A stretch of DNA of 64,000 nucleotides from an uncultured Rhodobacteraceae bacterium. Lineage in GTDB: Bacteria; Pseudomonadota; Alphaproteobacteria; Rhodobacterales; Rhodobacteraceae. A program made the position numbers and the translations under genes. Below the pieces are notes generated by a model that saw only the letters and a program-made list of their open reading frames with translations, searched no databases and was not told the origin of the DNA. Positions within the stretch are counted from its first letter, which is position 1; every line of letters starts with the position of its first letter. This document shows, one piece after another, positions 5,477 through 62,521 of this stretch. The DNA lies in NCBI GenBank assembly GCA_947503175.1, contig CANNCO010000006.1, positions 62,323 through 126,322 on the forward strand, in the 5' to 3' direction.

Positions 5477-6280
5477 ATGAAAATTGATCCCGAAAACACC
5501 GCGGGCCTCTCGGCCCAGATCGCCGAGGCGATCCGCGGCTCGATTGTATCCGGCGCGCTTATCGTTGACGAACGCCTTCCGTCAGAGGCGGAGCTCGCCG
5601 AACAATTCGAGGTTTCCCGGCCGACGATCCGCGAAGCCCTCAAACGCCTGGCCGCGCAGTCACTGATCCGCACACAACGCGGCGCCTTCGGCGGGGCCTT
5701 CGTCAACCGCCTGTCCTACGAAGATGCCCGCACGCAATTCGTTACGACATCGACACTGCTTCTCAGCATGAACCAAGTGAGTTTCGATACCGCCTGCGAA
5801 GCGCGTTTTGCTCTTGAACGGGCCTGTGCGCCCATGGCTGCCGCGCGCCGGGAACCGGATCAATTGGCGATCATGCGCGCAGAGATTGCACGCCAGAGCG
5901 AACCAAACCTGAGTGACGAGGCATTCTGCGCCTCCGACGTGACCTTTCACCGGGCGCTTGTCGACGGCGCGCAGAATCCGGTGCTGTCCTATCAGCTTTC
6001 CGGTTCCATTGAGGCAATGCAGCCCCTTATGAACATGATTACATTCTCTGCACGGTCCCGCGCCGAGATCGTCGCGATCCACGCCAACATCGCAGGTGCA
6101 TTGGAAAGCCGCGATGGCGAGGCAACGATGTCGCATCTGGAACGGCTTGAGAACTATACCAAAAAACTCGCGCATACCGTCATGGCGGCGAGGCAAAAGG
6201 CGCGTGACGGTAAGGGTTCTGCTACGCTGGCCACGGGCGACCGCACATTGGTTTCTCAGTCCGAGGCCAAGGATACCTGA
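5477..6280 (+). CDS. GntR/FadR family transcriptional regulator (DmdR-like by context)
   Basis: N-terminal w[25 protein letters not shown] plus FCD domain (DVTFHRAL); divergent from the dmd operon. Confidence 0.9.
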
Positions 6281-8825: not shown

Positions 8826-10658
8826 TTAGGTTGGCTCTGTAACATCTCTGTTACGTTCCTCTCTGTCCGAAATCCCGGAAGTAATCTCTTCCTGTTCCAG
8901 CGACAGGAGCTGTTCAACCTCGGCAAGGGCACTGTCACGCTCAAGGAAATAGGTGCGCGCAGCTTCGATCAGGTCTCGCATAGCGGCGTAGGCATAGCCA
9001 GAATCGTTAAGAAAGGATGTCGCGGACTCGGGCGTAAGATCCTGACTGCGGATCAGCATGTCGATACGGTGCGCCGTCGAACGCGCATCCTCTTCGATCT
9101 GTGCCCGTTCCTGATCCAGCCAAAGGGCACTGCGCTCTTCAGTCGGGGTATCGCTGAGTTTGTCGATCTCAATCACGATCCGTGCGATCTCGGTTCTCAG
9201 CGTGTCATAGAGATCGGTCACCCTGCCCTGTGGCCGGGTGGTGTAACGCAGCGTGTTCTTGCGCAGGTGTTTCACAGATTTCACAGCCTGCACGACCTTG
9301 CCCGCGACGTCGCGCAATGCATCGATCCGATCAGCTATTTCGGGATAATAGCTTCGACTGCCTGCGCGCGACGAGTAATCGACAATCGCCGCATAAAGCG
9401 TTTTGACCCGGCGCTCATACTCCGCCTCGATGTCCATCTCGATTTCCCGACGACTCTTGCGAACGGTCTCTGCGACGCTTGCAGCTTCGGATATCTCATC
9501 CCGGTGGAGGTTCAGGCCATGCAGGATCAGTTCCGTCGCATTCCGGTAAAGGTGGAAAACCTCCTGACGTAAGGCGCTCTCAAGTGTCTGGGGAAACTCA
9601 TCGACGGCCTTGTTCAGGAAGTGTGGACGGCTGACTTCCTGCACCGGTTCCGCGATCCTCCGTTCAAGGAACCCGACCAGTTGCTTCAGCAAAGGCAGCG
9701 TCAGGACAACGCCAAGCAGGTTGAAGACCGTGTGGAATACGGCAAGCTTCAGCGCAAAGTCGCTCTGCGCAATGCCGGCAAGATCGCTGAGCCAGTCCAC
9801 GGACATGCGCAGGGGGTCGATGAGCGCCAGCGCGACCGCGGCTGTCGCCATGTTGAAGATAAGATGCGCCAGCGCCAGCCGCCTGCCCTGATAGTTGGCA
9901 CTGAGCGAGCCGATGACCGCCGTGATCGTCGTGCCGATATTGGCGCCAATGGCCAGCGCAAGGGCATTGTCATAAGTGATCTGTCCCGCAGCCAAAGCCG
10001 TTATCGTCAGAACCATCGTGGCATGGCTCGATTGCATAACGACCGTCGCCATCGCCCCGATCAACGTATAAACGCCCAGCCCCAGAAGGCCGGCAAGGGC
10101 GAAACGGGTCAGGTCGATCTGGTCCCGAAATGCCTCGAACCCTTCCTTCATGTGATGGATGCCGAGGAACAGGAACCCCAACCCCCCAAGGGCAAAGCCG
10201 ATCCCGCGTATGGCTTTGGACTTTTGGAACACCAGAACGATGCTGAGCGCGATCAAGGGCATCGCGTAGGATGCGATATTGACCTTCAGACCCAGACCCG
10301 CGACGAGCCAAGCGCCGGTCGTCGTTCCGATATTGGCGCCGAGGATCACGCCGACCCCGGCAACAAGAGGAATCAGCCCGGCGCTGAGAAACGAGATGGT
10401 AATGACGGAGACGAGCGAACTGGATTGCAAGACGGTCGTTGAAACGAAGCCAAACAGAAGCGAGCGCGAGACAGATCCCGTCGCCCGCTCCAGAAGCCGC
10501 TCCAACGCACCGCCGCCGAACAGCTTGAAACCATCCTCCAGCATCAGCATCCCGAACAGGAAGATCGCCACACCGGCTGCGATCTCCTGAACTTCCGGCT
10601 TCAGCCAGAAGGCAAGGATAAGCACTCCGATGGCGGACGGAAGGAGGTATTTTTTCAA
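8826..10658 (-). CDS. Na+/Pi cotransporter family protein (NptA-like with PhoU-like C-terminus)
   Basis: Repeated motifs LQSSSLVS..GANIGTTTG and MQSSHAT..GANIGTTIT; TTG start. Confidence 0.9.
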   Translation of the reverse strand: MKKYLLPSAIGVLILAFWLKPEVQEIAAGVAIFLFGMLMLEDGFKLFGGGALERLLERATGSVSRSLLFGFVSTTVLQSSSLVSVITISFLSAGLIPLVAGVGVILGANIGTTTGAWLVAGLGLKVNIASYAMPLIALSIVLVFQKSKAIRGIGFALGGLGFLFLGIHHMKEGFEAFRDQIDLTRFALAGLLGLGVYTLIGAMATVVMQSSHATMVLTITALAAGQITYDNALALAIGANIGTTITAVIGSLSANYQGRRLALAHLIFNMATAAVALALIDPLRMSVDWLSDLAGIAQSDFALKLAVFHTVFNLLGVVLTLPLLKQLVGFLERRIAEPVQEVSRPHFLNKAVDEFPQTLESALRQEVFHLYRNATELILHGLNLHRDEISEAASVAETVRKSRREIEMDIEAEYERRVKTLYAAIVDYSSRAGSRSYYPEIADRIDALRDVAGKVVQAVKSVKHLRKNTLRYTTRPQGRVTDLYDTLRTEIARIVIEIDKLSDTPTEERSALWLDQERAQIEEDARSTAHRIDMLIRSQDLTPESATSFLNDSGYAYAAMRDLIEAARTYFLERDSALAEVEQLLSLEQEEITSGISDREERNRDVTEPT

Positions 10659-10823
10659 GTCGCCCCGATATTCATGACAGAAACATAACGAAAAAGATGG
10701 ATGAGACCATCGCCGGGAAAAACGACCGAGACAAGCGGTACGGGCGCCGTACCGGACCGGGTTCAGGCAAGAGGTCTGCGGACGGTTTGCAGTTTCCGCA
10801 GTTCCGGCCTTGCGTCGAGGCTG

Positions 10824-11504
10824 CTACTCCGTCTCTGCCGCATCCGACAAACCGGCGGCATCGCGGATGATCACCATTTGCGCCGTATCGAAGCCGATAA
10901 TGCCGTTCTTGCGCAGTTGCGTGAATGTCCGGCTGACTGTTTCGGTTGTCAGACCAAGGAAATCCGCGATATCGGCACGCCGCATCGACAGGTGCACATG
11001 GCGTTCTCCCTTAACCTCGACACCGATCTTGTCAGACAGAACTTCGAGAAACGACGCGACTTTTTCTGTCGCCGACTTGCAGGCCAGCATCATGAAATGG
11101 TCCTGCATGGCGCAGATTTCACCCAGCGCAGCCTTCAGAAGTCGGATCCGGGTCGGATCGTCATCCGGCGCGTGTTCCAGCGCCGATCGCCGATGCGCGA
11201 CAAGCTCGGCCGTTGCGATCACGTCGCAATCGGCATGGTAGAATCTCCCGTTCGGGAATCCCACGAAATCGCCCGGATATCCGAAGGCAATGACCTGCCT
11301 CTTTCCGTTTTCAAGAACGCGTGTCAGGCGAACGACGCCGCTTTTGACTTCATAGATGTGTTCCGCTTCGTCACCTTCATGAAAGAGATTGGCCCCTTGG
11401 CGCAAAAACCGGGCACAGCCAAACGCAGGCTTGGTGTTCTTGGCTTCGGGGGGTTCCGCGGGATCACTGGTTGCACCGTAATTGTTTAGAAGAGTAACAT
11501 ACAT
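10824..11504 (-). CDS. fixK: Crp/Fnr family regulator, FixK-type
   Basis: cNMP-binding barrel and IADFLGLTTETVSR recognition helix; no N-terminal FNR Cys cluster. Likely start at 11504 (GGAG RBS); ORF-track start is 11543. Confidence 0.8.
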   Translation of the reverse strand: MYVTLLNNYGATSDPAEPPEAKNTKPAFGCARFLRQGANLFHEGDEAEHIYEVKSGVVRLTRVLENGKRQVIAFGYPGDFVGFPNGRFYHADCDVIATAELVAHRRSALEHAPDDDPTRIRLLKAALGEICAMQDHFMMLACKSATEKVASFLEVLSDKIGVEVKGERHVHLSMRRADIADFLGLTTETVSRTFTQLRKNGIIGFDTAQMVIIRDAAGLSDAAETE

Positions 11505-11579
11505 GGCATGCTCCATCTCTAAGGCCGGAGCATTCTGACTCATTCGTGTCGCACGATGTTTGCGGCGACGTAGGACATT

Positions 11580-11595
11580 TGTAACGAATTGTATC
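11580..11595 (-). promoter_or_regulatory. K-box-like site GATACA-ATTC-GTTACA upstream of fixK
   Basis: One mismatch to the GTTACA-N4-GTTACA K-box bound by FxkR in rhizobia; lies between fixK and the OmpR-type regulator. Confidence 0.7.
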
Positions 11596-11664
11596 GCTCG
11601 CTCCCGGGCTTTGGTTTTGGACGCGCACGATGCTTCGATGCGGTCTATTGCACAGGAAACAAAG

Positions 11665-12402
11665 GTGGCCGAGACACATATTCTCGTCGTTGACGATGAC
11701 CCGAAGGTGCGGGTGCTGCTGCGGCGTTGCCTGGAATCCGACGGCTATCGTGTCGGCGAGGCAACCGGGCGCGCCGGGATCGAGGCCGCCTTTCGAACCA
11801 AACCACCGAATCTCGTGACGCTCGATTTGAACCTTGGGGAAGAGAACGGACTCGATCTGGCGCGCGAGATCCGACGTGACCGGCAGGTTCCGATCATCAT
11901 GGTCACCAGCAGGGATGATATCATTGACCGGGTTGTCGGACTTGAGCTGGGTGCCGATGACTACATCACCAAGCCGTTTCATGTCCGGGAAGTTCTGGCC
12001 CGCGTTCGCAGTGTCTTGCGACGTGCCACGGCTCCCGCCGACACGACCGCCCCCGAGCCGGAGCATCGACCTGTATCTCCGGAACTGCAGCAGATGGACG
12101 ATCTGACAATCGATGTCGAACGCATGATCCTGACCGACCGGGACGGACAACCCTGCGATCTTACCACGGCAGACTTCAAGCTCTTGACGGCGTTCCTGCG
12201 CAATCCGAAGCGGCCCCTGTCGCGTGACCGGTTGATGGATCTGATCGACGGGCCGGAATGGGTGCCGCTTGATCGGACGATCGACAATCAGGTGGCCCGA
12301 CTGCGCAAGAAGATCGAGCGCGATCCTTCCCATCCAAAACTGATCAAGACCGTCCGGGGGGTCGGATACATGCTAACGGAATCAGCCGTACCGGCCAGCT
12401 AG
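11665..12402 (+). CDS. fxkR: OmpR family response regulator, FxkR-like
   Basis: HILVVDDD...LDL...KPF receiver plus wHTH (PLDRTIDNQVARLRKKIE...IKTVRGVGY); GTG start at 11665. Symbol assigned from context (hybrid FixL, FixK, K-box). Confidence 0.75.
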   Translation: MAETHILVVDDDPKVRVLLRRCLESDGYRVGEATGRAGIEAAFRTKPPNLVTLDLNLGEENGLDLAREIRRDRQVPIIMVTSRDDIIDRVVGLELGADDYITKPFHVREVLARVRSVLRRATAPADTTAPEPEHRPVSPELQQMDDLTIDVERMILTDRDGQPCDLTTADFKLLTAFLRNPKRPLSRDRLMDLIDGPEWVPLDRTIDNQVARLRKKIERDPSHPKLIKTVRGVGYMLTESAVPAS

Positions 12403-13964
12403 GTCCCACCCAGACCCGCCTGAATCGCCTCTGCCAGCGCATCGTTACGGTAAGGCTTACCCAGAACCGGAAACTCCGGCCCGACCTTGCCATCGCGTAG
12501 CAGACCCTCGGAAAAACCCGATGTGATGAGCACGCCAATTTCAGGGAACTCATCCGAGATACGGCAAGCCAGATCGTATCCGGTCATCTCGCCCGGCATC
12601 ACCAGATCGGTGAAGACAAGATCAATATCCGTTCTGCTTTGAAGGATATCCATGGCGTCGGCGGCGTTGGGCACCGACAGGCAGGCATAGCCGAGCGAGA
12701 TGAGGCGGGTTTCCGTCAGGCGGCGAATCCTAGGATCGTCCTCGACGATCAGGATAAGCTGCCCCTGGCCTCTCGACACCTTCGTTGAGGATGTCGCGGC
12801 ACTGTCCGCCGCAATGGCTCCGGTCGGATCGAGCGCGGGGAAATAAAGGCTGACCTTCGTGCCCTCTCCCGGTTCGCTATAGATCGCAAAGTGGCCTCCT
12901 GACTGCTTCACAAAGCCGTAGACCATCGACAGACCCAGCCCCGTGCCCTTGCCGGCGGGTTTTGTTGTATAGAACGGTTCGATCGCGCGGGCTCTTGCCG
13001 CCGCACTCATCCCCTCGCCATCGTCGCTGACGGTCAGCCGGACAAAACTGCCTTTCCGGAACTCGATATCCTGGGCAAGGTACCGTTCGTCGACGACCAC
13101 GTTATCGACCTCGATCATGATCCGTCCGCCTTCCGGCATCGCGTCCTGGGCGTTCAGAGTGAGATTGAGGATCGCAGTCTGCAACTGTGTGGGATCTATC
13201 ATCGCCATCCAGGCATCCTTGGCCGCAGAGAAATCGATCCGGCATTGCGGGTTTATTGTACGCCGAAGCAGGCGAATGGAGGTCTTGAGAATCTCCTCGA
13301 GATTGGTCGGCTCCGACCTGAGCGCGCTCTTACGGGCAAAGACCAGAAGGCGCGATGTCAGTTCCTCGCCCAGACCTGCGGCCTCAAGAGCATCCTTGAT
13401 CAGCGGCTTGGCGGCATCGCTGGTCTCGATTGCCTGGAGCAGTTCGAGATTACCGATGATGACCGTCAACAGGTTATTGAAATCATGAGATATTCCGCCG
13501 GTCAATTGCCCGATAGCGTCCATACGCTGAGCGAGCATCATCGCTTCCTCAGTGCTACGTTCAGGACCCAGATCGTGCAGGATCGTAACGAAAGTCGGTT
13601 CGTCCTCGATCACGGCCTCACCGACTGACAAACGCAGAGGAAAGACCGTGCCATCCTTGCGCCTGCCTTCGACATCGCGCCCGACACCGTTGGTCCGCGT
13701 CTCGTTCGTTCTTGAGTGCCCCTTTATGAACTCCGGGTGGCCGGCAGCCATGCCGCCCGGAACAAGAAGCAGCAGGTTCTCTCCGACAAGTGCATCGGCG
13801 GGATATCCGAAAAGTCGTGAAGCCGCAGAGTTGGCGCGCGTGATCACACCTGCCTTGTCCGTGACGATAATGGCATCGGCGGCCGCTTCCAGCAGCGCCT
13901 TCAGCAGCGCGGGTTCCCGGGCATCGGACAATTGGCTGGTCCCATTCATCGGCTGACCCGACAT
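12399..13964 (-). CDS. Hybrid PAS histidine kinase with receiver domain (hFixL-like oxygen sensor)
   Basis: PAS ...AGHPEFI...GVGRDVEGRRKDGTVFPLRLSVGE aligns with the FixL haem-PAS including the axial His. H-box ISHDFNNLL, GKGTGLGL G-box, C-terminal REC. Start 13964 or 13949. Confidence 0.85.
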   Translation of the reverse strand: MSGQPMNGTSQLSDAREPALLKALLEAAADAIIVTDKAGVITRANSAASRLFGYPADALVGENLLLLVPGGMAAGHPEFIKGHSRTNETRTNGVGRDVEGRRKDGTVFPLRLSVGEAVIEDEPTFVTILHDLGPERSTEEAMMLAQRMDAIGQLTGGISHDFNNLLTVIIGNLELLQAIETSDAAKPLIKDALEAAGLGEELTSRLLVFARKSALRSEPTNLEEILKTSIRLLRRTINPQCRIDFSAAKDAWMAMIDPTQLQTAILNLTLNAQDAMPEGGRIMIEVDNVVVDERYLAQDIEFRKGSFVRLTVSDDGEGMSAAARARAIEPFYTTKPAGKGTGLGLSMVYGFVKQSGGHFAIYSEPGEGTKVSLYFPALDPTGAIAADSAATSSTKVSRGQGQLILIVEDDPRIRRLTETRLISLGYACLSVPNAADAMDILQSRTDIDLVFTDLVMPGEMTGYDLACRISDEFPEIGVLITSGFSEGLLRDGKVGPEFPVLGKPYRNDALAEAIQAGLGGT

Positions 13965-14068
13965 TTGTACGCGCAAACCGCGGGATTGATCCAGCCTTTG
14001 GCCAAAGACCGCGGCCGCGCGGGCTTCCAAAGTCCGTCTATGCGACCGCTGAACATCAACAAGCCGCG

Positions 14069-14467
14069 CTAACCCCAGTTCTCGGCCATGGCCCGAAGGA
14101 TATCCGCCCGGCTGATCTGACCGACCAAGCGTCCTTCCTGAACGACCGGAAAACGGCGAAAGGTGCTGTTGATGAACGCTTCGCAGGCCGCAACGATATC
14201 CATGCCCGGATCAAGCGTGTGAACGTCATCGGCCATATAGCCCGAAACCGGCTTGCCCCATTCACGATAGTAACTGGCCTCCAACGCGGCGCGCAGACAG
14301 TCTTTCTTGGACAGGATGCCGACCAACCGGCCCGCCTCATCGACCACGGGAGCGCCAGAGATCTTGTACTTCAGCAGGACGGCCATTGCATCGTTGATCT
14401 CCTGACCGGGACTGAGCGTGATCAACTCCCGCGCCATGTAATCCGCAACGGTCGGAAGCTCGCTCAT
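14069..14467 (-). CDS. CBS domain-containing protein
   Basis: Two CBS repeats ([16 protein letters not shown]; [19 protein letters not shown]); ATGA-coupled to nqrM. Confidence 0.9.
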
Positions 14468-14637
14468 CTCCCACCCTCGCCGTCATTCCTGCGCGTACAT
14501 CCAGCACAGGCCCCTGTTTTGCCACAGGCGATACCGCCGCAGGATCCCTTGATCGGATCGCGCCCGAAAAGGACGCCGACCGCCAAACCCAGAACGGCAA
14601 GCAGTATCAGCAATAGGCTCAGAAGGAATGTTGTCAT
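14464..14637 (-). CDS. nqrM: Na+-NQR maturation factor NqrM (57 aa, below the ORF-track cutoff)
   Basis: Manual translation [57 protein letters not shown]: one TM helix, IKGSCGG motif, four Cys; follows apbE. Confidence 0.85.
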
Positions 14638-14652
14638 GTCCAGTCTCCCGCC

Positions 14653-15609
14653 TCAGACCATGAGATGATCGGCAAAAGCGCCGGTTGTAACGGTTTCCAG
14701 TACGGCGCCACCCGACAAAAGGAAAAGAGCATCGATTCCGTGGCGGCGCGCGAAACCGGCGCCGCGTTCGCCCATGGCACAAAGGGCCGTCGCAAGCGCG
14801 TCGGCCCGCTCCGCCGTTTCCGCCAGAACCGAGACCGACGCAACCGGGGACACCGCAGAACGCCTGACGCGCGGGTCGATGATATGGCTTGTCGATACCG
14901 AACCGGTCACCCCGTTCGCGCTGTGACCGGATGTGGCAAGGGCCAGATGCCCCGGCGCCACGATGTGTCTTGCGGTGAATGCGCCCGGTGTCGGATCCTC
15001 GATGGCCACCTGCCAGCTCCGTCCGGACGGATGCTGCCCGTGGGCCCGGACTTCGCCCCCCAGTTCGATCAGGAAAGGTCCAGACAGACGCACTTTCAGG
15101 GCGTCGAACATCCGATCCAGCGCATGCCCTTTGGCGATGCCGCACAGATCGAGCGTCAGACCCGATTGCGTTTTTCTAAGCGCACCCGGAACGGCCTCGA
15201 CCTGCCCGCCGATCTCGCCATGTCCCGAAATCGGCCCAAAGCCCATCCTGTGAACCAACGGCCCGACGCGCGGATCAAACACGCCACCTGTGAAAAGCGA
15301 CATAGAAATCGCATGTTCCGCAACCCGTGCCAATGGGCCGGGAACATCTTGCCAATCGGTCGACTGGCTCCGATTGAAACGCGACAGGGCTGACTCGGGC
15401 TTGTAAGGCGACATCTGACTGTCGACCTCCGCAACGATCCGAATGATCGCCGCGCGCATCCCGGCGACCTCCGCATCTGATGTCACAACCCGCCATATGC
15501 CTCCGAAAGCCGAGCCGCCGGTAACAGCCGTGCCGGCCGATGCACCACCGGGTCCGAACGCGGCAGCCGCGGCACCTATTGTCATCATGTATCGTCGGGT
15601 CAGCATCAT
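14653..15609 (-). CDS. apbE: FAD:protein FMN transferase
   Basis: LDLCGIAKGHALD, LIELGGE, LATSG, SHIIDPR, ADALATAL; N-terminal TRR suggests Tat export. Confidence 0.92.
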   Translation of the reverse strand: MMLTRRYMMTIGAAAAAFGPGGASAGTAVTGGSAFGGIWRVVTSDAEVAGMRAAIIRIVAEVDSQMSPYKPESALSRFNRSQSTDWQDVPGPLARVAEHAISMSLFTGGVFDPRVGPLVHRMGFGPISGHGEIGGQVEAVPGALRKTQSGLTLDLCGIAKGHALDRMFDALKVRLSGPFLIELGGEVRAHGQHPSGRSWQVAIEDPTPGAFTARHIVAPGHLALATSGHSANGVTGSVSTSHIIDPRVRRSAVSPVASVSVLAETAERADALATALCAMGERGAGFARRHGIDALFLLSGGAVLETVTTGAFADHLMV

Positions 15610-15613
15610 CAGC

Positions 15614-16834
15614 CTATACTCCGAAATCGTCGTTGAAGATGCTGTCGGGCTCGACGCCCAGCTCGTCCAGCATGTGCATCACCGCCGAGATCATCATCGG
15701 CGGGCCGCAGAGATAGTATTCGCAGTCTTCGGGCGCCGGATGGTCGCGAAGGTAATTCTCAAGAGCAATCCGATGGACAAAACCGGTGGCGCCGGACCAA
15801 TCGTCCGTGGGTTCCGGATCAGAAAGCGCAACCGTCCAGTCGAAATTCTCGTGCTTTGCCGCAAGCGCGTTCAACTCATCCTCGTAGAACAGGTCTACCT
15901 TGCTGCGGGCACCGTACCAGAAAGTGACCTTCCGCCCGCTCTTCAGCCCTTCAAGCTGTTCGAACAGCATCGCCCGCAACGGAGCCATACCGACGCCGCC
16001 ACCGATAAAGACCATCTCGCGGTCGCTGTCGCGGGCCCGGAACGACCCGAACGGCCCGGCAGTTGACACCGTGTCGCCCGGGCTCAGATTGAACAGCCAA
16101 GACGATACGATCCCCGGTTTCGCGTCGCGCACCCCAGGGGGTGGCAGAGCCAGCCGGATATTCAGAACGATGCGGCCCGCAGCCGTGTCTTCTGGTCGGT
16201 TGGCGATGGAGTAGGCACGCGTTACGGGCTCGGATGTGTCCACCGAAAGCGAGCGTAGCGGTGCCCAGATGTCCGCGTGTTCGTCCGGAACCTTGATCTT
16301 GGCGTAGTCCAGCGCGAATGGCGGCGCGGTAAGCTGCACGAAAGCGCCTGCGAAAATGTCGGGGCGGCTGTCGTCGGGCAGGTCCAGAACGATCTCGCGG
16401 ATCAGCGGTGTCAGCGCCCGCACAGACGCAACCCGGCACATCACGGCCTCGGCGGCCAGAAGGTCATCGGGGACGCGCACGGCCATATCGCCGCGCATCG
16501 TAACCTGACAGGCCAGATGAACACCCGAATGAAGTTCCGATGGCGACAACCGCGCTGTCTCGATCGGCAACGGATCGGGTCCACCTTCAACGATCTGCAC
16601 CCTGCAGAGACCACACGTCCCCGCCCCGGCGCAGGCCGACGGTATCATCACACCGTTTTCGTTAAGAGCAGCCAAAAGCTTCCGTCCGGTTTCGGTCGCA
16701 ATACGGGTCGTGCCATTCAGGGTCAGTGTGGCGGGGCGCGCCGGGTTGAGAATGGCCCTGGCGGCGATCACCAAGCCCGACAAAAGCAGGATCAGAACGA
16801 TCAGAACACCGCTTCCCAGAAGGATACTGGTCAT
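15614..16834 (-). CDS. nqrF: NQR subunit F (NADH dehydrogenase, FAD and 2Fe-2S)
   Basis: TM anchor, [12 protein letters not shown]...[32 protein letters not shown]. Confidence 0.95.
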
Positions 16835-17430
16835 GGCCCCACCCCCGCAAAGGCAGAAAACCCAAGCGACATGAGGCCGGTGACCAGAAACGCGCTTGCC
16901 AGCCCCTGAACGCCATCGGGCATATTGCTGTAGCGCAGCCTTTCGCGGATCGCGGCGAAGGTGACAATCGCCAAAGCCCAGCCGACACCGCTTCCGAAAC
17001 CATAGACGACTGCTTCCAGCGGCTCATAGCGCCGTTCGACCATGAACAGGCTGCCGCCAAGTATCGCGCAGTTCACCGTGATCAGGGGCAGGAAGATGCC
17101 AAGAGCGCGGTAAAGGACCGGCACATAGCGTTCCAAGGTCATTTCGAGAATCTGCACCATGGCGGCGATGACGCCGATAAAGGCGATCAGTTTCAGAAAC
17201 GACAGATCCACGTCGGGCAGCCCCAGCCAACGCCACGCACCATCAATCAGCAAACCCTGAAAGATCAATGCGTTGACGGGAACCGTGATGCTTTGCACGA
17301 CGATCACTGCTGCACCAAGGCCCAATGCCGTTTCGACCCGCTCGGAAACCGCCAAAAACGTACAGATGCCCAGAAAGAACGACAGGGCGAGGTTCTCCTG
17401 AAAGATGGCGGCGATCAGCAGGTCGGTCAT
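16831..17430 (-). CDS. nqrE: NQR subunit E
   Basis: [18 protein letters not shown] and [13 protein letters not shown]; both Fe-S Cys present. Confidence 0.93.
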
Positions 17431-18080
17431 GACCCTGCCCTTTCACGCACCAGCGGGAACTTTGCGGGCTCTGCCTGCCGGGTCCAGTAGCTGCGGATGC
17501 CCCAGATCAGGAACCCGATGATGAAGAACGCGCTAGGTGCCAGTTGCATCAGGCCGAGCGGCTGGAACCATCCACCCTCGGAAACCGGGAGGAAAATGAA
17601 ATAGCCCAAGAGACTGCCCTGTCCCAAGAGTTCGCGTAATCCGCCGACGATCAGGAGGATCAGACTGTACCCGAGACCGTTGCCCAAGGCGTCCATGAAC
17701 GACCGCCCGGGCGGGTTGTGCATCGCAAAGGCCTCTGCCCGTCCCAGAACAAGACAGTTCGTCACGATCAGCCCGACAAAGATCGACAAGGCCCGGCTCA
17801 GTTCGAATGCAAAGGCTTGCATCAGCTCATCGATGACGATGACGAGTGACGCGATAATCGTGATCTGAACGATCAGGCGGATCACATTCGGAATGTGATG
17901 ACGCAACAGGCTGATCAGAACCGAAGACAGGCAAATCACGACCGTAAGGGCCACCGACATCATCAGCGCGGTGTTGACGGATGTGGTGACGGCAAGTGCC
18001 GAACACACGCCAAGTATCTGGCGAGTCACCGGGTTTTCGTCGATCAGCGGAGCGATCAAACGGTTCCATGCCTGTGCCAC
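17427..18080 (-). CDS. nqrD: NQR subunit D
   Basis: [12 protein letters not shown] and [14 protein letters not shown]; GTG start at 18080. Confidence 0.93.
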
Positions 18081-18081
18081 G

Positions 18082-18867
18082 CTAAAGCCCCCCGCTGCGA
18101 AGGCGTTCAAGAAACGGCCCGTAGCCGTGGGGCCCCAACCAGTAGCGCAGCATGTTGGCAACACCGCTGCCCGTCTGCGTCGCACCCGTGATTCCGTCCA
18201 CTTCGTAGGGTTTGGTTGCTTCGCCCTTCACGACCGAGATCACGATCTCGCCCGCCTCGTTCGCGACCTCCTTTCCGGGCCACAGCGCCTGCCATTCCGG
18301 GTCTTCGATCCGGGCGCCGAGGCCAGGGGTCTCGCCCTGTTCAAGGATCGTCAATGCAGCGACAGTCCGGAGATCGGCTTCCAGCGCGAGCAAGGCGCGT
18401 ATCATGGATTGATATCCCGTGCCCCGAACCGGAAGGACGACCAGTTGTACTCGGCCATTTCCTTCAAGGATGTGGACCGCCGCGTTAGGGCCTCTTTGGC
18501 CCAGTCCGGCGACGTCCAGCTCTGACGGCACCGGGACGGCGGCGTCCGGGTCACCGGCGGCCTCCATCTCATCATAGGCCGCCGGATCGTCACTCGCCAC
18601 GAACTCACCCGACGACAGATCGACCAGCCGGGTTTCGAGGTTCTCCGCACCCGCCTCTTCCAGCAGTTCCCGCATTCCCGGCAGGGTATCCAGCATCGCG
18701 GCCATCCGCGCTTCGCGCTCGGCCTCCAGATGGGCATCCTGTATGGGTTTCAGCAGAACCGACGCCGTCGAAACGACAAGGGCACACACGAAAGCCACAA
18801 TGACGGCCATCCCGATGACCTTGGCCGGGCTTTCCTTGGTTTGGGCGGTCGCCTGTGGATCACCCAT
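18082..18867 (-). CDS. nqrC: NQR subunit C (periplasmic FMN-binding)
   Basis: GETPGLGARI and VDGITGATQT flavinylation motif; start ATG at 18867. Confidence 0.92.
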   Translation of the reverse strand: MGDPQATAQTKESPAKVIGMAVIVAFVCALVVSTASVLLKPIQDAHLEAEREARMAAMLDTLPGMRELLEEAGAENLETRLVDLSSGEFVASDDPAAYDEMEAAGDPDAAVPVPSELDVAGLGQRGPNAAVHILEGNGRVQLVVLPVRGTGYQSMIRALLALEADLRTVAALTILEQGETPGLGARIEDPEWQALWPGKEVANEAGEIVISVVKGEATKPYEVDGITGATQTGSGVANMLRYWLGPHGYGPFLERLRSGGL

Positions 18868-19630
18868 GACGCAATCCCCTCTGTAACGCGTTGGCACGAA
18901 TGGCAAAGTAGTCGGCAAGCGGCGCGAAGATACTGGCAAGCAGCGACGCAAAAACGACGGCTTGCACATCAAGGCCAAAAATCCAGATCAGTGCGCCCGC
19001 CAGAATAGCATATGCGACACGCCCCGCATTCGTACTCGCCGCGGCAACGGGATCGCCGACCAGAAATACCAGCGGAAAGGCGGCAATGATCGCAACTGCC
19101 ACAATCTCATCCATTCCGACGGCAAGCCACAGAACCAGCAGGCTCGTCACCACGACCCGCCATGACAGGACGCCCATGATAAGCAGCAACGCCGCACCCG
19201 GCACCGTGGCAAGCGCCAGCGCGAGGGTCGGTTCGGGCAACGCCGTTCCAGGGAACGAAAACAGAAGCAACGCCAGCGACACAGCAGCCGCGTTCAGAAA
19301 TCCAAAGCCGCGGCCGCCGAACACCAACTCTCCAACGACTGCGCCAAGCGAGACGACAACGGCCACTTGCCAGACTGCGACATCCGCCGGGGTCAGAACG
19401 GCAAAGATCATCGCCGTCGTTATGCCTCCGGCACCCGGTGCCCCGTTTCGGACGCGCCAGAACACCGCATCCCAGAACAATGCCACCGCCGCTGCCACCA
19501 GAAAGACCCACAGCGCAGGCAATCCGCGTTCGGCAAGCACTACGGCCAGCGCAGGCAAAAGCGCAATCACCTGAACGACAGTCATGCCCAAGGCGCCCTG
19601 ACCGGCAAGAAGCCGTGCCGCAGCCGTCAT
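18860..19630 (-). CDS. nqrB: Shortened NqrB/RnfD-family membrane subunit (256 aa) lacking the SGAT FMN loop
   Basis: Retains VWQV...VFGG.GF.FLNAA, SWR, GDPV..A.TN.G, FAPLADY; the N-terminal extension and the central FMN segment are absent. Confidence 0.85.
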   Translation of the reverse strand: MTAAARLLAGQGALGMTVVQVIALLPALAVVLAERGLPALWVFLVAAAVALFWDAVFWRVRNGAPGAGGITTAMIFAVLTPADVAVWQVAVVVSLGAVVGELVFGGRGFGFLNAAAVSLALLLFSFPGTALPEPTLALALATVPGAALLLIMGVLSWRVVVTSLLVLWLAVGMDEIVAVAIIAAFPLVFLVGDPVAAASTNAGRVAYAILAGALIWIFGLDVQAVVFASLLASIFAPLADYFAIRANALQRGLRHG

Positions 19631-20829
19631 ACGGTCTGCTTTCGCAGGGTGTCCAGGACGTCACGCAGGCACTTACCGTAATCGGTCCCGCTCGTACAAA
19701 GGGCAGTAAGCGGGGCCACGTCATCCTCCAAAAGCTCAAAACATCCCAGCCGGCGTGCCGTTTCGGCATCACCCGTGCTCAGCGCACGCATCATCGGGAC
19801 GGGCAGGATATTCATAGGCAGCGCACGTTCAAGGGGCGACAATGCAAAAAGGGGCTGCGGCGCGCCCGTCCGGGCACCCGAAGCGGCACGGCGTCGATCG
19901 GTGACGGTGATCTCATCATGATGGCGGCCCAGATAGGCCGCCGGCCGCCCGCGCAACTCCGAGCCGGATATGAGGTCGGGCGGGGGATCGTCGTCATCGC
20001 TCCTGTCCTGAACGAGCACACGCAGATCAACGCCAAGCGGGATGCGCAGCACCGCCGGATCTGTGCATCGCGGCCCATGGAGCGCGACACTGCGAAACGG
20101 ATCATACCGCCCTGTGCGGAACAGATGCCCGATTGCAAGGACCTCCTGATATCCGATCGTCCAGACGCTTCGCTCCGAATGTACCGGAAAGAGCCGGTGA
20201 ACATGAGTTCCCGGCAGGCCCTGCCCATCACGATCGGGAAAATAGGATATCTTCACGGAAGAGGGGACGTCGTCCAGCGCGGGCGCACCGTTCGCCTGAC
20301 ACAAATGGACATGTCCTTTGGTCAGGGCCGCCAGCACTTCCAGACCGCGCGTCAGATCGGCGGCGCGTCCATCCATGACATTCGCCGGATGGGGCGCAGC
20401 GGTGCTCGTCCGTGTCGCCGTGACGAATATCGCGTCCGGGGACGCGTCGGGATCGGGGATACCGCCAAACGGGCGTGTGACAATGGCGGGCCAAAGCCCC
20501 CGTTCAAGCAACGTGCCGCGGATTGCGGCGGCGCTGCTATCATCGCAGGAACCTGTTTCCACCTCAGCGGAAGCGGCGGGGCCGGGCAGTATCTCGAAGA
20601 CCGAAAGCATACGCCGCGGGGCCATGCTGATGTCCCCGACGGTTCCGGAAATAGGGGAAACAAATGCGATCTCAGGGCGTTTCCTATCGCGGAAGACAAC
20701 CTGTCCGATGCTCACCGCGTCTCCGCGTTCGACTTCCTGCCGGATACGTAACTCGGAATAGTCGGCACCCAGAATACCAACGGGCAGCTCTCGCGCGTAC
20801 GTAGCTTCGCCATGCTGCGTCTCTGTCAT
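19627..20829 (-). CDS. nqrA: Shortened NqrA (about 400 aa)
   Basis: V..GD.V..GQ.VF.D.K.P.I.FVSP.SG, GLWPAIVTRPF, LGCFELLEDDVA.L..LC.SG.DYG; start ATG at 20829. Confidence 0.85.
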   Translation of the reverse strand: MTETQHGEATYARELPVGILGADYSELRIRQEVERGDAVSIGQVVFRDRKRPEIAFVSPISGTVGDISMAPRRMLSVFEILPGPAASAEVETGSCDDSSAAAIRGTLLERGLWPAIVTRPFGGIPDPDASPDAIFVTATRTSTAAPHPANVMDGRAADLTRGLEVLAALTKGHVHLCQANGAPALDDVPSSVKISYFPDRDGQGLPGTHVHRLFPVHSERSVWTIGYQEVLAIGHLFRTGRYDPFRSVALHGPRCTDPAVLRIPLGVDLRVLVQDRSDDDDPPPDLISGSELRGRPAAYLGRHHDEITVTDRRRAASGARTGAPQPLFALSPLERALPMNILPVPMMRALSTGDAETARRLGCFELLEDDVAPLTALCTSGTDYGKCLRDVLDTLRKQTV

Positions 20830-20897
20830 CTTGCCCGATTTCCGCCCTGTCTGGAGAGATTCTCCGACGAAGTTCTGCGAGGTTGGCGGGCAACTCA

Positions 20898-20911
20898 TTG
20901 AGATATATCAA
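20898..20911. promoter_or_regulatory. FNR/FixK-type box TTGAG-ATAT-ATCAA between nqrA and the cytochrome c gene
   Basis: One mismatch to consensus; centre about 75 bp from the nqrA start and about 70 bp from the cytochrome start. Confidence 0.72.
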
Positions 20912-20974
20912 ATCAAAAGATTTTGTATCGTGACCATATGCTCTGGAACGCTCTCGTCGGCAGGAGGAATCTCG

Positions 20975-22078
20975 ATGATCACCGCATTGCGCCAAAGGCT
21001 GCTTTGGCTTGTCTCGATCCTTGCACTTCTTATCGCACCAGTTGCAGCGCAAGCGCAGGATCAGGATGACGGGCCGAGCTTGTCCCAGATCGTCGATGCC
21101 TGGATAGCCTCGCCGCATGCAGACCGGTCTGCGGATGCCTTCACGCACTGGAACGAAGATGGCGAGATACCGGGCTCCTGCGCCACCTGCCATTCCGGGA
21201 TCGGATTCACCGACTATGTCAGCGGGTCGATGAGTACGGTCGGACGGATCGATCATCCGGTCCCGCTGGGCAACGTCGTCGATTGCGCGACATGTCACAG
21301 CGGAGCCGCCACGGCACTTGAATCCGTGCCGATGCTGTCCGGCGCGGTTGCCGAGAACGTCGGGTCATCTGCTGTCTGCTCTGTCTGTCATCAGGGCCGG
21401 AACTGGACGGGCTCGGTGGAGGCTGCCGTTGAAGGGCTCGGGATCGATACGGTGTCAGCCGAACTCGGTTTTGTGAACATCCACTATGCCGCCGCAGCCG
21501 CGACGCTGATGGGCGGCGATGCCCGTGGCGGCTACGAATATGCCGGCAAGGACTATAAGGGTCAGTTCACCCATGTGCCCGACTTGAACACCTGCACCGC
21601 CTGCCATTCGCCACACTCGCTCAAAGTCGAACTGACAAGCTGTTCAAGCTGTCACAGGGATGTCGCCAGCTTCCGTGACATCCGAACCACGCAGGTCGAT
21701 TTCGATGGCGATGGCGATGTCTCAGAGGGAATCGCTCGCCCGATCGCATCACTCCATGAGCAGTTGGGAGAGGCCATCGCGCTCTACGCTCGCGAAGTGG
21801 TCGGGGTGCCGGTGGTCTATGCCGCAGACAGCTATCCGTATTTCTTTGCCGACGGGGATGCGGACGGCGCGGTGTCAGAGGGCGAGGCGTCCTATCCCAA
21901 CCGCTACCAGAACTGGACCCCGCGCATGTTGCGTGCCGCCTACAACTATCAGTATGTAGCGAAGGACAAGGGTGCTTTCTCCCACAACCCGCATTATGCG
22001 CTCCAACTGCTTTACGATAGCCTCGAAGACCTGTCACAGGCTGTCGATGTGGATATCGCATCGCTGACCCGCCCCTAG
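20975..22078 (+). CDS. Periplasmic pentahaem cytochrome c (367 aa)
   Basis: Sec-type signal peptide ending AQA and five CxxCH motifs (CATCH, CATCH, CSVCH, CTACH, CSSCH); AGGAGG RBS. Confidence 0.9.
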   Translation: MITALRQRLLWLVSILALLIAPVAAQAQDQDDGPSLSQIVDAWIASPHADRSADAFTHWNEDGEIPGSCATCHSGIGFTDYVSGSMSTVGRIDHPVPLGNVVDCATCHSGAATALESVPMLSGAVAENVGSSAVCSVCHQGRNWTGSVEAAVEGLGIDTVSAELGFVNIHYAAAAATLMGGDARGGYEYAGKDYKGQFTHVPDLNTCTACHSPHSLKVELTSCSSCHRDVASFRDIRTTQVDFDGDGDVSEGIARPIASLHEQLGEAIALYAREVVGVPVVYAADSYPYFFADGDADGAVSEGEASYPNRYQNWTPRMLRAAYNYQYVAKDKGAFSHNPHYALQLLYDSLEDLSQAVDVDIASLTRP

Positions 22079-22090
22079 GGCGGGGTCGCC

Positions 22091-23272
22091 TTGGAACACG
22101 CGCTCCTGATCCTGATTCTTGGCGTCCTGTTTCTGGGTGCTCTGGCTCTCGATACGATCGGGCACATCGTCCATGTGCCTCGGGTTACACTGCTCATGCT
22201 TCTGGGGGCCCTTCTGGGCCCTCCGATACTTGATGTCCTCCCTCCGGCGCTTGCAGGCGCGAATGATGGCTTTGCCGCGGTCGCGCTGACAATGGTGGCC
22301 TTTCTCCTGGGCGGTACTCTCAAACGGGATACGCTTGCGGAGCATGGGCGCGAAATACTGATCATGTCGCTCAGCGTGGTGGGCATATCGATCCTGTTCG
22401 TGGCTGCCGGTCTGTACCTGGCTGGCATGGCCATCGTTCCGGCGCTTATCCTCGCGGCCATTTCGGCGGCGACGGCTCCGGCAGCGACGCGTGACGTCAT
22501 TCTTCAGTCAGGTCAGACCGGTCGCTTTGCGACGAACATCCTCGGAATCGTGGCGATCGATGATGCCTGGGGTCTTCTGGCGTTTAGCATCATCCTGATG
22601 GTTGCCGGTGCAATCGCAGGCGATGGGGCGGCGGCCTCGGTGCTTCACGGGGTCTGGGAGGCCGGCGGCGGCATTGCGCTTGGCGCGGCCATCGGATTTC
22701 CCGCGGCCTATCTGACCGGGCGGCTCAAACGCGGCGAGCCTTCCCTTCTCGAAGCCCTGGGCATCGTCCTCATCTGCGCCGGTGCATCGCTTTTGCTTGA
22801 GGTATCTTTCCTGCTCGCAGGCATGGTGGCGGGTGCGATTGTCGTCAACCTGGCACGTCATCACCGGTATCCCTTCCATGAAATCGAGCGGATCGAATGG
22901 CCTTTTCTACTGATATTCTTCATCATGGCGGGCGCATCTCTTGAAATCGGACTTATCGTGGAGTTCGGGGTTGTTGGCCTTGCCTATGTCACGGCCCGAA
23001 TGCTGGCTCGTGTGGTCGGCGGCTGGATGGGGGGGCGGCTTGCGCATCTCAGCGGGCAGGAAGGCATCATGACCGGGATTGCGCTGACCCCGCAGGCGGG
23101 CGTTGCCATCGGAATGGCACTCGCGGCAAGCAACAGGTTTCCCGAATACGCTGAACAGATCATGGCAATTACGATTGCCAGCACGATTATCTTCGAAATC
23201 ATCGGACCGCTTATGACACAGACGGCACTGAACCGGATGTCCGAAACAGAAGCTTCGAAGAGCGCCACTTAA
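22091..23272 (+). CDS. Monovalent cation:proton antiporter (CPA superfamily)
   Basis: About 12 TM segments, ATAPAAT, VAIDDAWG, PQAGVAIGMAL; TTG start 12 bp after the cytochrome stop. Confidence 0.88.
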   Translation: MEHALLILILGVLFLGALALDTIGHIVHVPRVTLLMLLGALLGPPILDVLPPALAGANDGFAAVALTMVAFLLGGTLKRDTLAEHGREILIMSLSVVGISILFVAAGLYLAGMAIVPALILAAISAATAPAATRDVILQSGQTGRFATNILGIVAIDDAWGLLAFSIILMVAGAIAGDGAAASVLHGVWEAGGGIALGAAIGFPAAYLTGRLKRGEPSLLEALGIVLICAGASLLLEVSFLLAGMVAGAIVVNLARHHRYPFHEIERIEWPFLLIFFIMAGASLEIGLIVEFGVVGLAYVTARMLARVVGGWMGGRLAHLSGQEGIMTGIALTPQAGVAIGMALAASNRFPEYAEQIMAITIASTIIFEIIGPLMTQTALNRMSETEASKSAT

Positions 23273-23293: not shown

Positions 23294-24490
23294 TCAAGTC
23301 GCCCGGGTTCGGTCACGTGTCTCGGTTTGTGGCGGAACCTGCGCCGCAACGTTCAGATATGCCGTGAAGTCCGACAGCGTGACAACGCCCGCCAGCCGCC
23401 CATCATCAATAACAAGGAACTTGCGCTGACCCGTTCTGGTAATCCGCTCAAGCAGATCCGGCGCGGAGTCTCGGGGGCCGACAACATCTCTGGCAGAAAG
23501 ACCCTCGAACACATCGTTCACGGTTGTTGTCGCCCAGTTTTCCCGATCGATCCTGGTGAGCAGATGAAGATCGATATACCCGATCGGCCGCGCGCCGGCC
23601 ATCACAGGCGCAAAACTGACCGAATGATTCAGAAAAACCTGATCCACGAGATCCTGGAGCGTCTGGTCGGGCTCTGCGGTCCAGGGCGCAGTGGTCATGA
23701 GATTGGCCACGAAAAGCCCGTGAAGCGCTTTACGTGTCAAAAGCTGCCGGTAGGTTGCGGTGGATGCCGCCAGTAGAAAAAGCCCGATCATGATCGGCCA
23801 GATCCCGGCCGCCACAGCACCGTTGAACAGCGTGAATATCCCAAGGGCAATAAGGCCATAGGCTGTGACCGTAGAAAGCCGCGCGGCGCGGCGCGTCGCC
23901 TCAAGCTGATCGCCGATCTGGCCCCAGAGAATCGCGCGATAGACCCGGCCTCCATCCAGCGGAAAGGCCGGCAAGAGGTTGAACACGGCAAGGATAAGGT
24001 TCGCCACCGCAAGGTAAAGCAGGACCGCCTGTACCGCTTCCATACCGGGCAGGCCCATGGTGAGCATGGCGAGAACCCAAAACGCGAGGGACAAGGCAAA
24101 GCTGGCCAGCGGTCCGGCCACGGCTACACGGAATTCGGTCGCGGCATCCGGCGGCTCGTCTTCCATCTCGGCGACACCGCCGAACAGAAAGAGAGTAATG
24201 CTTTTGATGCGAATACCGTGGCGGCGGGCGACAAGTGAATGGGCAAGCTCGTGCAGGATCAGCGATCCGAACAACGCAATCGCTGCGGCAACCGACATGG
24301 TGAAGAGCGTTTCCGGAGACGCGCCGGGGAGGACTGACGGAAAATACCCTTGCGACAGACTCCAGACCACAAGCGCGGCAATCAGAACCCAGCTTATATC
24401 GATCTTTACGTCAAAGCCGACAAGGCGCGCGATCCTGACAGACCGCCCCCAAAGCGTATGGCCGTCTTCAGACACAGGGCACCAGCCCAA
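23294..24490 (-). CDS. Site-2 protease (M50) with C-terminal CBS pair
   Basis: HELAH zinc motif, NLLPAFPLDGGR, CBS repeats; start 24490 or 24475. Confidence 0.9.
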   Translation of the reverse strand: MGWCPVSEDGHTLWGRSVRIARLVGFDVKIDISWVLIAALVVWSLSQGYFPSVLPGASPETLFTMSVAAAIALFGSLILHELAHSLVARRHGIRIKSITLFLFGGVAEMEDEPPDAATEFRVAVAGPLASFALSLAFWVLAMLTMGLPGMEAVQAVLLYLAVANLILAVFNLLPAFPLDGGRVYRAILWGQIGDQLEATRRAARLSTVTAYGLIALGIFTLFNGAVAAGIWPIMIGLFLLAASTATYRQLLTRKALHGLFVANLMTTAPWTAEPDQTLQDLVDQVFLNHSVSFAPVMAGARPIGYIDLHLLTRIDRENWATTTVNDVFEGLSARDVVGPRDSAPDLLERITRTGQRKFLVIDDGRLAGVVTLSDFTAYLNVAAQVPPQTETRDRTRAT

Positions 24491-24599
24491 ACCTCAGGAA
24501 GGTATTCTGTTTCTTGTGAACCCGGTCGAGCATCTTCTCCCTCCCGAACGCTCCTTTGTCGAAAAGAGCATGAATTCCGGCACAACCCGTTGAGGAAGA

Positions 24600-62427: not shown

Positions 62428-62521
62428 AATACAGGCCCCCAGAATAAGTACACCCCTGCAACTTAACCGCGAACGCAAGGGAACCTAAAGGACATTCTTA
62501 GACCAGGATCTGCCGAATTCC

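Follow-up and report, generated by a model that had tools for sequence, protein, structure and literature searches.

The relay formed by the hybrid kinase hFixL, the response regulator FxkR and the Crp/Fnr-type regulator FixK has so far been treated as a rhizobial speciality linked to symbiotic nitrogen fixation. The question raised by the DNA examined here, a window of 64,000 nucleotides from an uncultured Rhodobacteraceae bacterium (contig CANNCO010000006.1 of assembly GCA_947503175.1), is whether the same relay is at work in a marine member of the Rhodobacterales. Open reading frames (ORFs) and Pfam matches place three genes between positions 10824 and 13964: fixK on the minus strand, an OmpR-family regulator gene on the plus strand, and a hybrid PAS kinase gene on the minus strand. 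A sequence-only reading had taken these genes, together with a K-box upstream of fixK, for a complete oxygen-sensing cascade of the hFixL-FxkR-FixK type, and each of the three genes and the operator was found where that reading had put it. Homology, gene order and operator all agree with the proposed identity, and we consider the locus probably (a probability of roughly 0.72) to be the Rhodobacterales version of the rhizobial low-oxygen cascade. The gene identities, the conserved arrangement, the conserved operator and the positions of the FixK boxes are direct observations and are taken up in turn; the coordinates of all features are collected in Table 1.

The regulator and kinase genes are convergent, and the tetranucleotide CTAG at 12399-12402 is common to both of their stop codons. 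The kinase ORF extends from 12399 to 14030 on the minus strand, with the protein (P0241) called from the ATG at 13964. The fixK ORF reaches back to an ATG at 11543, but the ATG at 11504 is most likely the true start because it gives the MYVT N-terminus common to seven of seven homologues and has a GGAG 6 nt upstream of it. The regulator ORF runs from 11560 to 12402, and translation probably begins at the GTG at 11665, which has an AGGA upstream and yields the 245-residue product as called in the protein collection (P0001). Other start codons were rejected: ATG 11543 for fixK, and TTG 11560 and ATG 11638 for fxkR, are without a Shine-Dalgarno sequence and the homologues begin later, and starting fxkR at TTG 11560 would also put the K-box inside coding sequence. 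With the revised starts the divergent intergenic region between fixK and fxkR is 160 bp.

The sensor is a soluble hybrid kinase with its PAS domain directly at the start of the protein. Pfam assigns PAS to residues 20-131, HisKA to 152-213, HATPase_c to 257-377 and Response_reg to 404-514. In the PDB, the PAS domain matches FixL haem domains best (2cmn/1dp6, E 8e-21 to 1e-20), and among solved structures the haem domains of Bradyrhizobium japonicum FixL (BjFixL) and Sinorhizobium meliloti FixL (E 8e-21 to 2e-19) outrank the haem-PAS domain of DosP. His200 of BjFixL, the proximal haem ligand, aligns with His76 of the kinase (codon 13737-13739), and the O2-contacting Arg220 aligns with Arg96 (codon 13677-13679). 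The family set used for comparison consisted of 103 homologues of 500-545 residues, and a position was counted as conserved when it was kept in at least 85% of them; His76 is kept in all 103 and Arg96 in 102, which bears out the earlier description of a hybrid PAS kinase that retains the FixL haem histidine. The H-box His160 and the receiver Asp453 are invariant in the kinase alignment (A3). From the haem PAS domain to the REC domain the kinase is 41% identical to hFixL9 of Rhizobium leguminosarum (johnstonii) 3841 (Rlv3841); the alignment begins at hFixL9 residue 130, and the first ~120 residues of hFixL9, which hold its N-terminal PAS domain, have no counterpart. A single-PAS form of ~510 residues is the rule in the Roseobacteraceae, and it is doubtful that the additional N-terminal PAS domain is a defining trait of the hFixL family. 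The fold of the full-length AlphaFold model matches PAS-linked kinases, including the LOV/FixL chimera YF1 (4GCZ) and the DHp-CA core of CckA; as a model it supports only the generic PAS-DHp-CA-REC architecture and says nothing on haem. A single-sequence AlphaFold model of the PAS domain alone was unusable (predicted local distance difference test score, pLDDT, of 41). From the FixL matches, haem binding and switching of the kinase by O2 are predicted.

The second protein of the cassette consists of Response_reg and Trans_reg_C domains, and Pfam and NCBIfam detect no output domain of the FixJ/LuxR type. It is 47% identical to FxkR9 of Rlv3841 and 49% identical to the fxkR product of Rhizobium etli Mim1, and rhizobial fxkR genes are its top matches outside the Rhodobacterales in the plasmid collection and fetched loci. 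Its nearest relatives, at 61-80% identity, are numerous marine metagenome proteins and proteins of named Roseobacteraceae. The regulator is genetically linked to hfixL and fixK, being adjacent to them in the window and in five of seven related Rhodobacterales loci.

FixK itself has cNMP_binding and HTH_Crp_2 domains in Pfam. Its top PDB match is B. japonicum FixK2 (4I2O, 2e-30), with FNR at 6e-19, and it is 36% identical to FixK9b and 33% identical to FixK9a of Rlv3841. It carries an ETVSR recognition motif, of the E--SR helix type that reads TTGA-N6-TCAA. The N-terminal CX2CX5C cluster is absent from the protein, in which cysteines occur only at positions 30, 93, 131 and 142; with FixK2 as the nearest solved structure, the assignment as a FixK lacking the FNR cysteine cluster stands. 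Cys93 (codon 11226-11228; in the sequence HADC of the sensor-domain beta-roll) is kept in all seven Rhodobacterales FixK sequences read. It aligns with neither Cys122 of FNR nor Cys183 of FixK2, and it could be a redox-sensitive residue.

A direct repeat lies in the DNA between the regulator gene and fixK. Positions 11580-11595 read TGTAAC-GAAT-TGTATC on the plus strand and GATACA-ATTC-GTTACA on the fixK strand. With up to one mismatch allowed, GTTACA-N4-GTTACA has this single site in the window (0.01 expected; one hit was reached in 1 of 100 shuffles). Each of the seven related Rhodobacterales loci (79 kb together) holds exactly one match to the pattern TGTAWC-N4-TGTAWC, always in the intergenic region between fixK and the regulator gene; across all loci, the distance of the repeat block from the fixK ATG is 65-79 nt. 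The same pattern was found once in 79 control loci (831 kb) around other OmpR-family regulators; these generic loci came from a regulator pattern search, from which one orthologous locus (L004) had been set aside. It also matches the known K-box upstream of fixK9a in Rlv3841. The repeat block shows the highest conservation in the intergenic alignment, and several relatives have a third hexamer in phase. Since the repeat is conserved and similarly placed across related loci, it is a phylogenetic footprint and not a chance match, and the proposal of a GATACA-N4-GTTACA K-box upstream of fixK is thus upheld as a predicted operator. The site at 11580-11595 is right, and with the revised starts it lies 76 nt 5' of the fixK ATG and 70 nt 5' of the fxkR GTG.

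The geometry of the putative fixK promoter can be compared with that of rhizobia. In Rlv3841, hFixL signals through FxkR, which binds the K-box GTTACA-N4-GTTACA, found at -62 relative to the transcription starts of fixK9a and fixK9b. The divergent genes fixK9b and fxkR9 have a single K-box in common, at +6 relative to the fxkR9 start, and this box is presumed to repress fxkR9 (PMC7888657). The K-box of the window has the same orientation relative to fixK as that shared K-box. Downstream of it, eight of eight Rhodobacterales loci retain a -10-like hexamer that fits xAxxxT with a G after it (CAGAAT at 11537-11532 in the window), and if fixK transcription starts ~7 nt 3' of this hexamer, the centre of the box would be near -62 here as well. 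A fixK autoregulatory anaerobox was not found in the intergenic region with up to two mismatches. A terminator-like hairpin with a T-run (GCTCGCTCCCGGGC TTTGGTTTTG) lies at 11596-11609 on the plus strand, directly after the K-box and in the presumed fxkR leader; one such site was found against 0.3 expected, with no obvious conservation in relatives. The sole control match (GATACATTCCGATACA) is at 5950-5965 of locus L005 of Roseovarius sp. S1116L3, ~20 nt 5' of a different OmpR-type regulator gene. The product of that gene is 43% identical to the regulator studied here and has a membrane HAMP kinase as its partner; multicopper-oxidase and CopB-like genes lie alongside. Hexamer specificity may be common to related OmpR regulators.

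The seven related loci come from a Sulfitobacter plasmid, a Tropicibacter plasmid, Falsihalocynthiibacter, Puniceibacterium, Pseudooceanicola, Palleronia and a metagenome-assembled genome labelled Rhodobacter. The order fixK(-)/fxkR(+)/hfixL(-) is identical in five of them (Sulfitobacter, Falsihalocynthiibacter, Puniceibacterium, Pseudooceanicola and Palleronia), and in the Rhodobacter-labelled genome a kinase homologue lies ~4 kb away. Homologues also occur in Jannaschia, Tateyamaria, Yoonia and many metagenome contigs, and UniRef names some of the roseobacter homologues 'Sensor protein FixL'. The cassette is thus common in the Roseobacteraceae, on chromosomes and on plasmids. The 49-kb plasmid of Tropicibacter oceani (L002 3067-5178) carries fixK and fxkR with the K-box, together with a CBS gene and a ppsA that has a box in front of it, and its cassette adjoins the repABC-like replication genes of the plasmid; hfixL was not found within the 11.6-kb locus. 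The module is therefore plasmid-borne and, there, partly decoupled from its sensor. The HisD protein encoded in the window places the genome in the Rhodobacterales, with ~82% identity to the nearest named relatives. Separately, contigs from a public sequencing run labelled as another organism include fragments of a relative that is ~99% identical to the region 10500-21200, at low depth; the public runs gave no usable expression signal. As further runs with that label are oligo-dT RNA-seq, this bacterium or a closely related strain may live in association with a host.

The families that travel with the cassette elsewhere include M50-CBS proteases, phasins, Usp, HSP20, DUF2267, DUF3775, P-type ATPases, ppsA and cco assembly genes. 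These accessory families overlap the predicted alphaproteobacterial FixK core regulon, which has HSP20, CBS proteins, cytochrome c, HlyD/ABC transporters and a kinase (PMC2908626). FixK boxes also head operons with the sensor gene at their end: in Puniceibacterium and Palleronia a box stands 5' of a same-strand string of genes that ends in hfixL, and on the Sulfitobacter plasmid boxes stand 5' of a USP-cytochrome c-CBS-hfixL string and of ccoGHIS. Box density is ~1 per 5 kb in cassette loci compared with ~1 per 32 kb in control loci.

The window itself has five exact TTGA-N6-TCAA boxes where 0.78 are expected, a number reached by none of 100 shuffles, and all five are intergenic with their centres 63-76 nt 5' of a start codon. 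These promoter-positioned boxes lend support to the suggestion that the cassette drives a local regulon. The palindromic box at 20898-20911 is single and lies ~71-76 nt from the starts of both nqrA (likely ATG 20829) and the multihaem cytochrome c gene (ATG 20976), the latter being followed by a Na+/H+ exchanger gene (22091-23272). The box upstream of ppsA has a counterpart on the Tropicibacter plasmid, where ppsA adjoins fixK and the box is at the same distance. A box with one mismatch at 28860 precedes an HlyD-ABC-MacB operon. No nif/fix nitrogen-fixation or cbb3-oxidase families were found among the 63 window ORFs scanned with Pfam, a set that included all longer candidates, which agrees with the initial remark that no nitrogen-fixation genes are in view.

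Table 1. Positions of the cassette, its regulatory sites and the neighbouring features, counted from the first nucleotide of the window.
Feature	Position	Strand	Basis or context
fixK-type Crp/Fnr regulator gene, 226 aa, without Fe-S cysteine cluster	10824..11504	-	Pfam, NCBIfam, PDB match
-10-like hexamer CAGAAT, putative fixK promoter	11532..11537	-	conservation, alignment only
K-box-like direct repeat, presumed FxkR operator	11580..11595	-	motif scan, comparative alignment
fxkR-like OmpR/PhoB-family response regulator gene, 245 aa, REC + winged helix	11665..12402	+	Pfam
short hFixL-like soluble hybrid histidine kinase gene, 521 aa	12399..13964	-	Pfam, FixL haem-domain matches
PAS sensor domain of kinase	13572..13907	-	Pfam, alignment to BjFixL
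CBS-pair protein gene, directly 5' of hfixL	14069..14467	-	Pfam CBS, E 1e-29
nqrABCDEF-apbE-nqrM operon, Na+-translocating NADH:quinone reductase	14464..20829	-	Pfam
FixK/FNR box TTGAGATATATCAA	20898..20911	.	between divergent nqrA and multihaem cytochrome c gene
FixK/FNR box TTGAGATTAATCAA	965..978	.	70 nt 5' of DcuC-family carrier gene
DcuC-family anaerobic C4-dicarboxylate carrier gene	ATG 901, runs off window	-	Pfam
M50-CBS protease gene	23294-24490	-	Pfam
FixK/FNR box TTGAGGAAGATCAA	24590..24603	.	5' of 21-codon ORF (ATG 24533) and M50-CBS protease gene
P-type cation ATPase gene	24600-27209	-	Pfam
FixK/FNR box TTGATGCGCGTCAA	27245..27258	.	between P-type cation ATPase and phasin genes
phasin gene	27320-27658	+	Pfam
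FixK/FNR box TTGACCACGATCAA	32134..32147	.	64 nt 5' of ppsA
ppsA	32205-34598	+	Pfam

The genes between the box at 20898 and the cassette deserve separate mention. The nqr operon lies between this box and the CBS and hfixL genes, and its Pfam matches are NQRA, NQR2_RnfD, FMN_bind, Rnf-Nqr twice, Fer2/FAD/NAD, ApbE and NqrM. The last of these is a 57-codon nqrM-like ORF at 14464-14637 on the minus strand, which scores 21 bits against the NqrM cut-off of 22 and is cysteine-rich (GSCGG...C...C..C). The nqrM stop codon (TGA) and the ATG of the CBS gene overlap in the sequence ATGA; through this overlap the CBS gene, and possibly hfixL as well, is linked to the nqr operon. The hfixL gene begins 104 nt after the CBS gene on the same strand, and no terminator-like site was found between the two. 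This same-strand arrangement makes positive feedback from FixK to hfixL plausible. Genes linked to sodium cluster around the cassette (8826-23272) and comprise a Na+/Pi cotransporter gene (8826-10658), the Na+-translocating NADH:quinone reductase (Na+-NQR) operon and the Na+/H+ exchanger gene. Farther away, a 21-codon ORF (MLDRVHKKQNTFLRFGLVPCV) at 24468-24533 on the minus strand, with a very strong Shine-Dalgarno sequence (GGGAGGGAG), lies between the box at 24590 and the M50-CBS ORF; it may encode a leader peptide, or the start of the M50-CBS gene may be miscalled. At the far end of the window are a two-gene Gabija anti-phage system on the minus strand (59304-62478), consisting of GajA (60697-62478; PADLOC, 704 bits) and GajB (59304-60710; 567 bits), and an adjoining AbiGi-like gene (58574-59224).

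The model proposed for this locus follows the rhizobial scheme. The single haem-PAS hybrid kinase would autophosphorylate once O2 leaves the haem, and would pass the phosphoryl group to the adjacent OmpR-family regulator, either directly or via its own receiver domain. The phosphorylated regulator would bind TGTAAC-N4-TGTATC, with its 10-bp phasing, and activate fixK; with a box in or near the fxkR leader, fxkR would probably be damped too. FixK, which has no iron-sulphur (Fe-S) cluster, would not sense O2 itself and would bind the TTGA-N6-TCAA boxes of neighbouring operons. Its predicted targets are dcuC, the nqrABCDEF-apbE-nqrM-CBS operon, the genes for the multihaem cytochrome c and the Na+/H+ exchanger, the M50-CBS protease gene, the phasin and P-type ATPase genes, and ppsA. 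Read-through from the nqr promoter into hfixL might provide positive feedback. In this scheme the sensing of O2 by haem, the identity of donor and acceptor in phosphotransfer, the promoter geometry and the feedback loop are predictions made from the sequence.

Several observations weigh against this model. For this organism the case is built on homology. Residues 91-92 of the kinase are Thr-Asn, a pair unique among the 103 homologues; the equivalent residues are Ile215/Ile216 in BjFixL, and Ile-Ile is found in 88 of the 103 homologues as well as in hFixL9 of Rlv3841, with Ile or Val at position 91 in 100 of 103 and Ile, Leu or Val at position 92 in 101 of 103. In S. meliloti FixL the equivalent pair, Ile209/Ile210, affects ligand binding and the coupling to the kinase. 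Gly87, kept in 100 of the 103 homologues, is replaced by Asn, and further deviations are Met68 to Val and His111 to Arg. In total the kinase deviates at 21 of 198 conserved positions, the most of any of the 103 members. With such a divergent haem pocket, haem affinity, ligand response or signalling may differ. The sensor, at 521 residues and without the N-terminal PAS domain, is also shorter than rhizobial hFixL proteins of ~640 residues (641 in the one compared), which have that domain; its NCBIfam FixL score is far under the equivalog cut-off, and the full-length AlphaFold model has a mean pLDDT of 74.6, with the FG loop below 50. Hybrid kinases usually need a histidine phosphotransfer (Hpt) protein, and none was identified. 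The assignment of the other two proteins is subject to similar caveats. Rhizobial fxkR products score 213-214 bits against the regulator and other OmpR-family proteins 195-198 bits or less, a small BLAST margin, and a curated FxkR model does not exist. The top NCBIfam model for FixK is Caulobacter FixK, at 141 bits against a cut-off of 300 (FnrL models reach 117), so the protein is no equivalog of Caulobacter FixK. Finally, a consensus scan of the intergenic region found no sigma-70 promoter, so conservation is the sole basis of the -10 assignment, and an Fe-S FnrL of the kind usual in the Rhodobacterales (PMC4999443) would recognise the same boxes as FixK.

This last point leads to a possible, though rather unlikely, alternative, in which an Fe-S FnrL encoded elsewhere in the genome is the main protein acting on the boxes, FixK is auxiliary or competing, and the regulon is not specific to the cassette. 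The box and the E--SR recognition motif are common to FixK- and FNR-type proteins (PMC7888657, PMC4999443), both types act on the same anaeroboxes in Rlv3841 (PMC7888657), and FnrN/FnrL is the regulator reported for the Rhodobacterales (PMC4999443). However, the same boxed gene families travel with the cassette across genera and plasmids, which argues for a functional link to this FixK, and boxes are several times denser in cassette loci than in control loci. The unusual haem pocket raises a different alternative, that the wiring is as described and the input is not FixL-like, being instead another haem ligand, a redox signal, O2 at a very different affinity, or none at all in a haem-free constitutive kinase. 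The Thr-Asn pair and the replacements at positions 68, 87 and 111 would fit such an input. The proximal histidine and Arg96 are nevertheless retained, the regulon downstream is one typical of hypoxia, and in the F-helix/FG-loop segment other family members deviate at least as often (up to 8 of 21), so that the sensor domain is not obviously decaying; we regard an atypical input as improbable. Still more improbable is a lack of partnership between kinase and regulator, with the kinase feeding a phosphorelay to another regulator, the OmpR-type protein answering to a different kinase, and the repeat serving only as the autoregulatory operator of that OmpR-type protein. Such a separation would account for a hybrid kinase with no Hpt protein found, for the Tropicibacter plasmid locus with fixK, fxkR and box and no hfixL within 11.6 kb, and for the similar repeat 5' of the unrelated OmpR-type regulator gene near copper-related genes in Roseovarius. 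However, the convergent, stop-overlapping pair is conserved in five of the seven related loci, and in rhizobia the homologous hFixL and FxkR are both genetically required for fixK induction (PMC7888657, PMC4999443).

The hFixL-FxkR-FixK reading can also be extended. The single-PAS cassette might be a mobile hypoxia module of marine Rhodobacterales that couples low O2 to sodium energetics (Na+-NQR, the Na+/H+ exchanger and DcuC), reinforces itself by read-through from nqr into hfixL, and has a Thr-Asn pocket that alters ligand affinity or specificity. We regard this extension as speculative and on balance unlikely.

Among known systems, the closest is the hFixL-FxkR-FixK(f) cascade of R. etli CFN42, Rlv3841 and S. 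meliloti, which has in common with the window a hybrid kinase with a haem-PAS domain, a regulator of the OmpR family and a FixK that lacks the cysteine cluster, as well as a direct-repeat K-box with 10-bp phasing, a divergent fixK-fxkR region in the same orientation, and a downstream anaerobox regulon. The gene arrangement is comparable to that of clusters 2 and 3 of Rlv3841. In Rlv3841, however, fixK and hfixL form an operon with fxkR elsewhere or upstream, and a chromosomal cluster has fxkRc with fixKc-hfixLc (PMC7888657), whereas the window has one compact cassette in which the fxkR and hfixL stops overlap. Its hexamers are GATACA and GTTACA, often with a third in-phase repeat in relatives, in place of the rhizobial GTTACA-N4-GTTACA; its distal haem pocket has Thr-Asn, unlike that of rhizobial hFixL; and its host is a marine member of the Rhodobacterales in which the local targets are Na+-NQR, dcuC, ppsA and phasin genes, with no nif or fixNOQP found in the window. 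The FixLJ-FixK2 and FixLJ-FixK systems of B. japonicum, S. meliloti and Caulobacter crescentus are similar in having a haem-PAS sensor and a FixK-type effector, and their predicted regulon likewise includes HSP20, CBS proteins, cytochrome c and HlyD/ABC transporters, along with the gene for the sensor (PMC2908626). However, FixJ is of the NarL/LuxR type and the window regulator of the OmpR/PhoB type, the window kinase has a C-terminal receiver, and the operator is a direct repeat and not a FixJ site. The remark that the regulator is OmpR-type, convergent with the kinase gene and not FixJ-like was well founded. FnrL and FnrN use the same TTGA-N6-TCAA box and have the Crp/Fnr fold and similar target functions (PMC4999443), but the FixK of the window has no cysteine cluster, and its control by O2 would be transcriptional, via the two-component system.

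The literature searched on FxkR and hFixL concerns rhizobia, and none was found that describes the cascade in roseobacters. The original 2012 FxkR paper (Zamorano-Sanchez) is said to have noted hFixL- and FxkR-like genes beside fixK-like genes in other bacteria. A 2016 comparative study reported Rhodobacterales with FnrN-type regulators only and placed the origin of hFixL-FxkR-FixKf in the ancestor of the Rhizobiaceae (PMC4999443). As a statement of distribution, this is contradicted by the cassette in the Rhodobacterales.

The system is not of a new kind and the concept is unchanged; what the locus adds are small variations on it, namely a sensor with one PAS domain, a compact cassette with convergent genes, a K-box of the GATACA type that is sometimes triple, and a non-symbiotic regulon rich in sodium energetics. 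Mechanistic work could make use of the minimal one-PAS sensor and of the naturally varying K-boxes, which have two or three repeats of the GATACA or GTTACA kind. A known system is extended to a new lineage, in which it appears to serve respiration and stress genes and not nitrogen fixation. The cassette and its conserved operator are widespread in marine Roseobacteraceae, and are also found on plasmids, which suggests that the haem-based route is a general alphaproteobacterial hypoxia switch. Bacteria that inhabit particles, sediments and algal surfaces would gain from it a second layer of O2 control that does not depend on an Fe-S cluster.

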